A stretch of 9,155 bases of DNA. Origin: Escherichia coli. Its GTDB lineage: Bacteria; Pseudomonadota; Gammaproteobacteria; Enterobacterales; Enterobacteriaceae. The position numbers and the translations under genes were made by a program. Position 1 is the stretch's first letter, and each line of letters starts with the position of its first letter. The notes beneath the pieces were generated by a model, which did not search any database, was not told where the DNA came from, and worked only from the letters and a program-made list of their open reading frames with translations. Positions 2,514 to 8,601 of the stretch are shown one piece after another. The stretch lies in NCBI RefSeq assembly GCF_003334315.1, contig NZ_QOWR01000091.1, one strand, 5' to 3'.

Positions 2514-3404
2514 TTAATACTCGAGAATGCCGTGCGCGACGGGCAAATAGCGCAGAGAGAAATAGAGAGTGTCTTTACCGCAAGAGGAACGTTTCGCTAA
2601 CAGCGAGGCAATTTCTGCGTCCGGTTTCGGTTTCGCTGTAAAGGTTTTGCCTTTGCCGGCGACAAACAGTTCATAAACAATGCCGCTTGCTGGGGCGGAG
2701 CTTTGGCAATCGGCGCTGGCCTGTAGATAACGTTCACGCTGTTCAGCGGTAAGTTTATCCACGCCGCTGCCATCCTGTACCCAGACATTAACGCCGGTTG
2801 CTTTAACGTGTTCCAGCAGTTGGCGATAGCCATCGGGCGACATGTTTCCGGCGAAAAAACTACTGATATAAACCGGTTTTGCTGAAACATCGCTAATCAG
2901 CCGCTGCTCGTTGTTTAACCATGTTAGCAAAGGCTGACGGGCGGCTTCGCTGCGCCAGTTCAGGTCGTCAATTTCCGCGCTGATGTACCAGCCATCCGGC
3001 GTTACGCCAGGCGCGGCGCTCCATAATCTGGCTTGCTGGAGATCGGCAGCCAGCAGGCGATTAAGATAGCTTTCCAGCGCTGCGGACGACTGTTTCTGGT
3101 GCATAAAAAATTCCGGATCGGCGTTCAGCCCGACAATCAGCTTCAGGCCAGCCTGTTGCGCAGCTGCGGCCCGCTTAAACAATAACGCGCGCTGTTCTGG
3201 CTGGGTGAATGCATCGCCGTAACGGGTCCATTGCAAAACCAGGGTATCGAAGCCTTGCAAACGTAACTGACTCATCAGCCCCTGCCACTGGGTATCGGTA
3301 ACCTGACTATCACGGTTTTGTGGTTGCCAGATAATACCTTTCATCGCAAAGGAAAAAGGGCTGACCAAAAGCAGTGTCAGCAATACGAAAATGAACTTAC
3401 GCAT
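2514..3404 (-). CDS. ybcH: YbcH, secreted (signal-peptide) protein of unresolved function, third gene of the nfrB-nfrA-ybcH operon, 296 aa
   Basis: 296-aa ORF with an N-terminal signal peptide (MRKFIFVLLTLLLVSPFSFA). Its ATG at 3402-3404 directly abuts the nfrA stop codon (TAAATG). Length and sequence match K-12 YbcH as I recall it. Confidence 0.9.
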   Translation of the reverse strand: MRKFIFVLLTLLLVSPFSFAMKGIIWQPQNRDSQVTDTQWQGLMSQLRLQGFDTLVLQWTRYGDAFTQPEQRALLFKRAAAAQQAGLKLIVGLNADPEFFMHQKQSSAALESYLNRLLAADLQQARLWSAAPGVTPDGWYISAEIDDLNWRSEAARQPLLTWLNNEQRLISDVSAKPVYISSFFAGNMSPDGYRQLLEHVKATGVNVWVQDGSGVDKLTAEQRERYLQASADCQSSAPASGIVYELFVAGKGKTFTAKPKPDAEIASLLAKRSSCGKDTLYFSLRYLPVAHGILEY

Positions 3405-6377: not shown

Positions 6378-8601
6378 TTTCGGACTCCAGTTGCGCAACC
6401 TGTTCTGTGTTTAAACCTGCTTTGAGTAATAGTGATTGCATCGAAACTTGTAATTCGCGTTGAATTGTCAGGACGCGATCCAACGTTTCCTGGCTGATAA
6501 CGCCTTCGGTGACCAAAAACTTGCCGAGCGGCAGAGAACTGCGTTCATGGCGCAATAACAACACGTTAATTGCTGAACGATTAATATGACCGAGCGTGGT
6601 CAGTATTTCGGCGAACAGGAACTGATGCGGCACATATTGCCGCCAGATTTCACCGGTCTGCTGTTCCGTGAGCCACTGATGCTGAACCGCATTGTACAAC
6701 ATTGCCCGCGGATCGTGACCGCGTCGGCGTGCATACCAGTGACGTAACCCCGTGACAATTTGTCCCCGCAGAACAATGACGTAACGCACTTTGCGTCCGA
6801 CTTTACGCGTCAGGGCCGCCAGCGAAACAGGGTCAATACCATCTTCACTGCCGACAATTAACTCATCATTTTCCAGACGCAGCGGCAGTACTGCATAATG
6901 CAGCGCCACGGAGGCCGGCATTTCGGCAATCAGCGAGGAAGGGATCTGCCAGGCATCGATGGATTCCCACGCCACGCCGTTTTGCTCTGCCAGCGCCTGT
7001 GCCAGCTGCTCGGCGCTAATCAGCCCCTGCATCAGCATTGAACCGCCCAGGCGTAGACCTTCGACGCGATTACGCAGTGCTGTATCGAGTTGTTCTTCAG
7101 TGATGACCTGATTTTCCAGCAGAATTTGACCTAACGGGCGCAACGAGCGGGTATCGCCAGTGACGCTGGGGAAGTCATGCGTTGTTTTATCCCACGCGAC
7201 GCGACGTGGATCGCCGTGTTGAAGTACCTGTTTTAGCGCGCGCCAGTTGGCCATAAAGTTAATCAGGTTGCCCCAGAAAAGACGCAGGACAGATAGCAGC
7301 CCCTGCGTCAGACCGTAGTAGCCAGTGACGAAAATCACCCGCTGCACGATGCGGTTAACCATCAAGCCAAAGTTTAGCCACAGCAGGGTCATTAACCATG
7401 CGCTGCCGCTAAAAATAGAAAGGAAATGCCAGGCATCGGGCCACAAACTTTCATACGCCAGCAACAGCAAAAGCTGGAGCATCACCAGCATCGCGAGGAA
7501 GCTGACAAAGTTACTGATTGCCCCTTTGCGGTCGCGCCAGAGAAAGTAGTTCAGCGTCAGGCTGGAGGTCCATTTGTGGGTTTTAAAGCCCTGGAAAACA
7601 ATGCCGATGATCCAGCGAGATTTTTGTCGAACTGCAGTCGAAAAGGTATCGGGGAAATATTCGCGCACGCAGATCATGTTTGACGTCCGTGCGTGCTGCA
7701 AAAATTTACGCTGCTCGCGTTCTTTGGCTTCGTCCACCACCGGAAAACGGACAAAAATTTCCGTCATACCTTTCTCTTTCAGGCGGAAACCAATGTCGTA
7801 ATCTTCAGTCAGACTCTGCACGTCGAAAGCAATACCGTCACCGTCAGCTAACAGAGCGGTCACGGCGCGGCGGCTGAAACAGGTGCCGACGCCTGCGCTG
7901 GGCACTTGTCCGGCGAGGGCTTCACGCACCGGAACATCTTTGCCATGCAGCTCTGAAAACTCATCAATGTAAGTCATGCTGGTGAAGTGCGTCCATTCGC
8001 GTTCGAACGGATACACCGGGATCTGAATCAGATCTTTACGCTCGACCAGATAGTTGAACAGACGCAATTCCATCGGTGAAATCACATCTTCGGCGTCATG
8101 CAGAATAAAACCAGCAAAAGCGAAATTGGCGCTACGCTCAAATTGGGTGATGGCGTCCAGCACGTTGTTCAGACAGTCGGCTTTGCTGGTGGGGCCAGGA
8201 CGCGCGCAGACTACCTTATGCACATTCGGGAAGCGAGCGCACACTTCGTCAACATCACGCTGAGTATCGGGGTCGTTGGGGTAGGTGCCAACAAAGATAT
8301 GATAGTTTTCGTAGTCGAGCGTGGTCGCCGCCAGCTCGGCCATATTGCCGATGACGCCCGTTTCATTCCATGCCGGAACCATAATCGCTAACGGTTTTTC
8401 ATCTGGTTTATACAGTTCGCGGTAACTCATTCGCGGGTAGCGGCGATAAACACTCAACTTGCGTTTAATGCGGCGTACCCAGTAGACGACATCAATAAAA
8501 AAATCGTCCAGCCCGCTGATGAACATGATGACCGCTAACGTTATCGCGATTACTTTTAAGCCGTAGAGCCAGGTAGCAAAAACATCAAGAAGCCAGTCCA
8601 C
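6364..8601 (-). CDS. nfrB: NfrB, inner-membrane processive family-2 glycosyltransferase with C-terminal c-di-GMP-binding MshEN domain (exopolysaccharide synthase; phage N4 adsorption protein B), 745 aa
   Basis: 745-aa ORF starting at GTG (8599-8601), with an in-frame stop 3 codons upstream and an AAGG SD-like sequence about 9 nt upstream. N-terminal TM segment, GT2 hallmarks DAED (aa 169-172) and QKSRW (aa 326-330, coords 7612-7626), further TM helices, then a C-terminal region with RLG-type MshEN motifs. Matches K-12 NfrB as I recall it. Confidence 0.93.
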   Translation of the reverse strand: MDWLLDVFATWLYGLKVIAITLAVIMFISGLDDFFIDVVYWVRRIKRKLSVYRRYPRMSYRELYKPDEKPLAIMVPAWNETGVIGNMAELAATTLDYENYHIFVGTYPNDPDTQRDVDEVCARFPNVHKVVCARPGPTSKADCLNNVLDAITQFERSANFAFAGFILHDAEDVISPMELRLFNYLVERKDLIQIPVYPFEREWTHFTSMTYIDEFSELHGKDVPVREALAGQVPSAGVGTCFSRRAVTALLADGDGIAFDVQSLTEDYDIGFRLKEKGMTEIFVRFPVVDEAKEREQRKFLQHARTSNMICVREYFPDTFSTAVRQKSRWIIGIVFQGFKTHKWTSSLTLNYFLWRDRKGAISNFVSFLAMLVMLQLLLLLAYESLWPDAWHFLSIFSGSAWLMTLLWLNFGLMVNRIVQRVIFVTGYYGLTQGLLSVLRLFWGNLINFMANWRALKQVLQHGDPRRVAWDKTTHDFPSVTGDTRSLRPLGQILLENQVITEEQLDTALRNRVEGLRLGGSMLMQGLISAEQLAQALAEQNGVAWESIDAWQIPSSLIAEMPASVALHYAVLPLRLENDELIVGSEDGIDPVSLAALTRKVGRKVRYVIVLRGQIVTGLRHWYARRRGHDPRAMLYNAVQHQWLTEQQTGEIWRQYVPHQFLFAEILTTLGHINRSAINVLLLRHERSSLPLGKFLVTEGVISQETLDRVLTIQRELQVSMQSLLLKAGLNTEQVAQLESENEGE

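Follow-up and report, generated by a model that had tools for sequence, protein, structure and literature searches.

The question raised by the nfrB-nfrA-ybcH locus in a 9,155-nt stretch of Escherichia coli DNA (contig NZ_QOWR01000091.1, assembly GCF_003334315.1; the whole stretch is called the window here) is whether the three genes still make up a complete exopolysaccharide system, and what two of its parts, the C-terminal tail of NfrB and the protein YbcH, would do in it. Our analysis revealed that the region is very probably an intact copy of the E. coli nfrB-nfrA-ybcH operon, which encodes a synthase-dependent exopolysaccharide system. Three co-directional open reading frames (ORFs) were listed on the minus strand (6364-8601, 3405-6398 and 2514-3404); for the second, the nfrA extent in Table 1 starts from the annotated ATG. 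At the nfrB/nfrA junction (GAAAATGAAGGAGAATAA), the sequence places the nfrA ATG within the final nfrB codons, giving an overlap of 14 nt, and at the nfrA/ybcH junction (TGGTAAATGCGT) the ybcH ATG directly abuts the nfrA TAA. This overlap and abutment suggest that the three genes are translationally coupled.

The window belongs to the E. coli chromosome and is 100% identical to several complete genomes in which the genes are annotated as nfrB, nfrA and ybcH. Neither internal stops nor frameshifts were detected in the three genes, whose number, order, 14-nt overlap and lengths are the same as in K-12 MG1655. The encoded proteins share 98-99.7% identity with those of K-12 (11 substitutions in total: two in NfrB, I375L and A649T, four in NfrA and five in YbcH). 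The codon differences from K-12 are biased to synonymous changes (synonymous versus nonsynonymous, 25:2 for nfrB, 23:4 for nfrA and 11:5 for ybcH), which indicates purifying selection. Furthermore, all three proteins exceeded the cut-offs of their NCBIfam equivalog models (NF008411 for NfrB, 1332.2 bits, cut-off 1170; NF007302 for NfrA, 1889.7 bits, cut-off 1223; NF007404 for YbcH, 520.5 bits, cut-off 344). The operon together with its 142-nt leader was found in 5244 of 5426 complete E. coli genomes (at least 80% query coverage in 5048 of them), so this is a known system; it is a core-genome operon that was described in two dedicated papers in 2021 (PMC8669469, PMC8669472). Nothing in the window contradicts the operon identity. 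A role as a defence system was also considered and rejected, as PADLOC models matched none of the three proteins.

These results agree with the original prediction, made from the sequence without database searches, which had described three full-length co-directional ORFs over 2514-8601 (the coordinates proved exact) and had called the locus a known system and not a new one. It had also proposed profile searches of the three proteins, and these matched GT2 (family-2 glycosyltransferase), MshEN, tetratricopeptide repeat (TPR), NfrA_C and DUF4434 models in Pfam. A 745-aa protein with no GT2 or MshEN match, which it had named as the outcome that would speak against it, was not what was found, since both domains were matched. 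Its assignments of NfrB as a GT2 synthase with a receptor for cyclic di-GMP (c-di-GMP) and of NfrA as a TPR/beta-barrel exporter are both borne out below, as is the parallel that it drew with other synthase-dependent polysaccharide systems.

In NfrB, the GT2 domain gave Pfam E-values of 2e-40 and 6e-35, and the signatures of processive GT2 enzymes are present (D169, TED at 265-267 and QKSRW at 326-330), which places the protein among the synthases. Hydrophobic segments lie at 18-36 and 365-383. The first c-di-GMP module contains the tandem 24-residue motifs at 489-512 and 517-540, including L490, G491 and L537, together with the Pfam MshEN match at residues 542-628 (E 9e-14); in a search of solved structures, this module matched the N-domains of PilF, PilB and MshE in PDB. 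Every NfrB residue with an experimentally critical role is retained, namely D169, D267 (TED), W330 (QxxRW), L490, G491 and L537. In K-12, D169A, D267A and W330A were reported to abolish phage N4 infection (PMC8669469), and G491L, G519S and L490A/L537A to reduce it (PMC8669469, PMC8669472), and a Kd of ~1 uM was reported for the binding of c-di-GMP by the fragment NfrB 414-745 (PMC8669469). The c-di-GMP module looks modular over the NfrB family, judging from the lengths of homologs, which comprise proteins with the glycosyltransferase only (~480 aa), with the motif pair added (~545 aa), with the full MshEN domain (~625 aa) and with MshEN plus tail (~715-750 aa). In addition, one homolog of 1916 aa carries an NfrB-like synthase fused to a long TPR-rich region with an NfrA-like C-terminal part, which could reflect either a genuine gene fusion or an error in gene calling.

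By its sequence pattern, the NfrB tail repeats the c-di-GMP-binding motif pair of MshEN in a second, conserved copy. The MshEN motif, RLGxx(L/V/I)(L/V/I)xxG(L/V/I)(L/V/I)xxxxLxxxLxxQ, covers 24 residues and occurs as two copies 5 residues apart. When residues 625-745 were searched alone, the 53-residue c-di-GMP motif model NF053729 matched over 665-714 with 46.3 bits (cut-off 38). Residues 691-714 (PLGKFLVTEGVISQETLDRVLTIQ) fit the 24-residue motif, and the preceding spacer (686-690) is 5 residues long. Key positions of the tail (26 homologs with a tail, 32-62% identity) are highly conserved, with counts of 26/27 for G693, 26/27 for L696, 23/27 for L711 and 23/27 for Q714. Comparison of the tail profile with solved structures matched Vibrio cholerae MshE (5htl, residues 9-62, E 2e-11) and Thermus thermophilus PilF (E 1e-28), and hhalign aligned it to the validated NfrB site with 98.6% probability. 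BLASTP between the MshEN region and the tail gave no match, and the tail was not recognised in the Pfam scan; the duplication is visible with NCBIfam and profile methods only. Sellner et al. (2021) labelled the tail a 'domain with unknown function' (PMC8669472), and the motif pair is unrecognised in the published descriptions of NfrB, including both 2021 papers (PMC8669469, PMC8669472).

Compared with MshE (5htl) and the triple MshEN/GSPII domains of PilF, NfrB shows the same 24+5+24 layout at 489-540 and 662-714. However, the module sits on a glycosyltransferase in NfrB and on a secretion ATPase in MshE and PilF, and the second copy in NfrB lacks the C-terminal subdomain. The tail motif pair may serve as a further ligand site or act as a regulatory mimic. 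Two points weigh against a second binding site. The first half-motif of the tail (662-685) is degenerate in E. coli, with A664 in place of the key Gly and H685 in place of Gln, although most homologs carry a canonical LGD..LV..G first motif. Additionally, mutation of the first site alone (G491L) is reported to nearly abolish NfrB function, so any second c-di-GMP site would be insufficient by itself.

For NfrA, Pfam identified TPR repeats and NfrA_C (E 1e-67), and the C-terminal region was modelled as an outer-membrane beta-barrel whose fold matches PgaA, BcsC and PelB among other barrels, so that the protein has the make-up of a TPR-containing outer-membrane barrel exporter. A sequence search with the C-terminal 263 aa against solved structures gave nothing useful, and fold comparison alone was informative; in a test with the barrel fragment, the likeness to PgaA and BcsC was no greater than that to other outer-membrane barrels. 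The fragment model of residues 715-990 (window 3408-4232) has 12 long beta-strands and a low-confidence stretch, while the full-length AlphaFold model of Sellner et al. has a TPR domain and a 16-stranded barrel similar to PgaA and BcsC (PMC8669472). This mismatch may mean that the fragment boundary truncated the barrel; otherwise, the number of strands calls for a recheck.

YbcH belongs to DUF4434 (Pfam) and bears a signal peptide, so the original description of a secreted protein stands; its role had been left unresolved, and the structure prediction that had been proposed for it gave a glycoside-hydrolase-type TIM barrel. The model is a confident one and has the (beta/alpha)8 fold of clan GH-A. 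Enzymes of this clan (the 4/7 superfamily) carry the acid/base Glu on strand 4 and the nucleophile on strand 7. In the YbcH model, strand 4 (137-145) contains the invariant E143 and strand 7 (240-244) ends with the invariant E244, and each of the eight strands has further invariant residues at its C-terminal end. YbcH shares the fold with clan GH-A and with the DUF4434 structure 4h41 (BT_0435), and its conserved Glu residues on strands 4 and 7 may, by strand position in the model, correspond to the catalytic pair. Because the two invariant Glu residues lie on strands 4 and 7 as in clan GH-A, YbcH is proposed to be a periplasmic glycosidase. Most likely, as the model suggests, it is a glycoside hydrolase that trims or releases the Nfr polymer and not a mere scaffold, and by analogy it would most likely be the counterpart of BcsZ, PslG or the C-domain of PgaB, with which the mild deletion phenotype fits.

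Alternatively, YbcH could be a non-catalytic periplasmic scaffold or carbohydrate-binding adaptor in which the hydrolase-like fold is merely ancestral, an explanation that is a serious one though on the doubtful side. Several observations weigh on its side and against a hydrolase. YbcH has no sequence-level membership in any characterised glycoside hydrolase family, unlike the members of clan GH-A, and neither the single sequence nor a 47-sequence profile matched a hydrolase among solved structures. The catalytic role of E143 and E244 is putative, strand position in the model being its one basis, and catalytically dead TIM-barrel glycan binders exist. Junkermeier and Hengge described YbcH as a 'putative scaffold' that N4 infection does not need and that contributes only in part to the motility phenotype (PMC8669469, PMC10211494); deletion of ybcH hardly alters N4 infection (PMC8669469). 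According to a 2025 preprint, ybcH contributes partially to the sensitivity to N4 (bioRxiv 10.1101/2025.09.29.679331). However, invariant acids on strands 4 and 7, together with invariant residues on all eight strands, fit a maintained active site, and the position of ybcH is retained in distant taxa. Dispensability is also shared by the hydrolases of other synthase-dependent systems, as BcsZ, PslG and AlgL are non-essential for polymer production. Junkermeier and Hengge reported YbcH to be a membrane-anchored protein without a cleavage site (PMC8669469), whereas the N-terminus MRKFIFVLLTLLLVSPFSFA/MKG (residues 1-22, window 3339-3404) has small residues at -3 (S) and -1 (A), so the signal peptide could be cleavable.

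Whether the operon works in the source strain is a separate matter. The Nfr system is presumably expressed there, and the region upstream of the nfrB start (8602-8743) presumably holds the nfrB promoter and leader. A rival explanation is that the operon is intact in sequence and yet non-functional, being silent, lacking its cyclase or its substrate, or having its product masked, with ORFs that have not yet decayed; we consider this unlikely. In its favour, and against a working system, no upstream promoter was identified: a sigma-70 scan found 7 sites where 9.0 were expected, with no excess over chance, and a relaxed sigma-28 pattern upstream of nfrB gave no convincing site, despite the FliA dependence reported for the operon in K-12 (PMC8669469). 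Intact ORFs are not proof of function, because DgcJ and WecB are encoded outside the window; DgcQ lies outside it as well, and activity in the source strain is therefore not readable from the window. Furthermore, the lineage is rich in IS1 insertion sequences (~39 places per genome), and in two of the nearest relatives, NZ_CP103694.1 (locus positions 8721-9489) and NZ_AP025205.2, nfrB is split by an IS1, the remaining sequence matching the window at 100% identity. IS1 inside nfrB of such close relatives indicates pressure on this lineage to inactivate the locus, and selection by phages or by cost would fit the repeated knock-out of nfrB. Sellner et al. reported disruption of nfrB or dgcJ in some strains, among them all B strains (PMC8669472).

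Against a non-functional operon stand the strongly synonymous changes relative to K-12 and the retention of all experimentally critical residues. The 142 nt upstream of nfrB, which are identical to those of the functional K-12 locus, are also retained in genomes with either upstream neighbour. Past this region (8744-9155), where K-12 has the end of cusS, the window instead runs into the edge of an Rhs/PAAR/VgrG type VI island, formed by the 3' part of a transposase gene of the ISAs1 family (H-repeat; 8872-9155, stop at 8872). The ISAs1 junction 142 nt upstream of nfrB is common to 2462 of 5426 complete genomes (~45%); it is therefore an old polymorphism and not a recent insertion or disruption. 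For the same reason, together with the K-12-identical proximal 142 nt, a recent displacement of the nfrB promoter by ISAs1 was rejected.

For a functional Nfr system, the following model may be proposed. In the inner membrane, the GT2 domain of NfrB would polymerise a UDP-activated sugar, probably UDP-N-acetylmannosamine (UDP-ManNAc) from WecB, and the growing chain would be moved over the membrane. NfrB would be switched on when c-di-GMP, made locally by DgcJ encoded elsewhere, binds the cytoplasmic MshEN domain. The TPR domain of NfrA would then take over the periplasmic chain, with export through its outer-membrane beta-barrel, and the surface polymer together with NfrA would serve as the receptor of phage N4. 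Published work on K-12 supports this model. N4 infection requires wecB but not wecC (PMC8669469), and wecB is the sole gene in the pathway for enterobacterial common antigen (ECA) that is required (PMC8669469, PMC8669472). There is a specific requirement for DgcJ, which was co-purified with NfrB (PMC8669469), and the same model was reached by Sellner et al. (2021), who named the product NGR (PMC8669472). The dedicated diguanylate cyclase encoded elsewhere, as originally predicted, thus corresponds to DgcJ, for which specific activation in K-12 was reported (PMC8669469, PMC8669472). Of the predicted ManNAc-based polymer serving as N4 receptor, the receptor role held up, while the composition is a postulate based on the need for wecB. 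No chemical characterisation of the polymer exists, and a 2023 review still called it 'uncharacterized', with YbcH as a potential scaffold (PMC10211494).

Gene order in distant organisms also bears on the substrate. Rhodanobacter and a metagenomic organism both keep the gene order epimerase, GT2/MshEN, TPR/NfrA_C and DUF4434; in each, a gene for a WecB-like UDP-GlcNAc 2-epimerase stands directly upstream of the nfrB homolog (loci 1728-2840 and 1360-2493). This conserved order argues for one three-gene module that uses the product of a 2-epimerase as substrate, and the upstream WecB-like epimerase gives what appears, from gene context, to be independent support for a ManNAc-type substrate. Compared with the Bcs, Pga, Alg and Pel systems, with which it shares the processive GT2 synthase and the TPR/barrel exporter, the Nfr system is minimal, with three genes and UDP-ManNAc as the putative substrate, and its c-di-GMP receptor is MshEN, whereas the others use PilZ (BcsA, Alg44), the PgaCD interface or the GGDEF I-site of PelD. 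The pre-2021 view that NfrA and NfrB act solely as protein receptors for N4, without a polymer, came from historical genetics, which had linked both nfrA and nfrB to N4 resistance and had described NfrA as a receptor in the outer membrane (cited in PMC8669469), but it is extremely improbable, being already refuted by published glycosyltransferase active-site mutants that abolish infection with unchanged NfrB levels (PMC8669469, PMC8669472), and being at odds with the requirement for wecB but no other ECA gene (PMC8669469, PMC8669472) and with a domain architecture of polysaccharide synthase plus exporter.

The features of the window are collected in Table 1.

Table 1. Positions of the genes, protein regions and other features in the window (numbering from the first nucleotide of the 9,155-nt stretch).
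Feature	Coordinates	Strand	Remarks
nfrB	6364-8601	minus	745 aa, GTG start; processive family-2 glycosyltransferase of the inner membrane, with a receptor for c-di-GMP at the C-terminus
NfrB GT2 catalytic domain, residues 70-382	7456-8394	minus	Pfam PF13641 and PF13632
NfrB MshEN module 1, residues 488-628	6718-7140	minus	NF053729 on 489-540, Pfam MshEN on 542-628
NfrB tail motif pair, residues 662-685 and 691-714	6460-6618	minus	NF053729, profile matches, hhalign
nfrA	3405-6377	minus	990 aa; signal peptide, TPR superhelix and C-terminal outer-membrane beta-barrel
NfrA beta-barrel region, ~residues 740-990	3408-4160	minus	ends in an aromatic residue (...GVHW)
ybcH	2514-3404	minus	296 aa; periplasmic DUF4434 protein, predicted glycoside-hydrolase-like (beta/alpha)8 barrel
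Region upstream of nfrB start (142 nt)	8602-8743	minus	0 differences from K-12; homology stops at 8743
envY	1570-2331	minus	
tRNA-Arg(UCU) (argU)	1448-1524		
fimZ	573-1205	minus	

The neighbours of the operon differ from those in K-12, as DLP12 and ompT are missing on the ybcH side and an ISAs1/Rhs island takes the place of cusS. envY lies within 45 nt of the argU tRNA, and the cryptic prophage DLP12, appY and ompT, which are between them in K-12, are absent. Because homology to K-12 begins at 1477, the exact right end of K-12 DLP12, and the prophage is absent, the site represents an empty argU attachment site. The Rfam scan of the window detected the tRNA alone and no other family. At the left end, window positions 1-454 hold the terminal part of an IS1 copy that is joined to the interior of sfmF; only the final 116 nt of that gene are left (455-570), while in the closest genomes the IS1 is farther off, in a fimD-like usher gene. 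Part of the sfm fimbrial operon thus appears to have been deleted by IS1 in the source strain, judging from this junction. The IS elements that had been predicted on both sides of the operon are literally there, but the right-hand ISAs1/H-repeat is not recent, and only the IS1 side resembles recent damage.

The locus itself is nothing new, and what the window adds is an intact Nfr copy in an IS1-rich strain. With DgcJ and WecB intact, the source strain is predicted to present the glycan receptor of N4 and may be susceptible to N4-like phages and to others that depend on NGR. The combined proposal, that YbcH is an active periplasmic clan-GH-A-type glycosidase on the N4 receptor glycan and that NfrB has a second MshEN-type site in its tail, is a tentative one that may well hold in full but is somewhat short of probable. 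If it is true, the synthase would read c-di-GMP via two sites, either cooperatively or with different thresholds, and active YbcH would be a tool to degrade and characterise the Nfr polymer. The hydrolase-type Glu pair of YbcH and the duplicated motif in the NfrB tail are testable leads for the field of c-di-GMP and exopolysaccharides.

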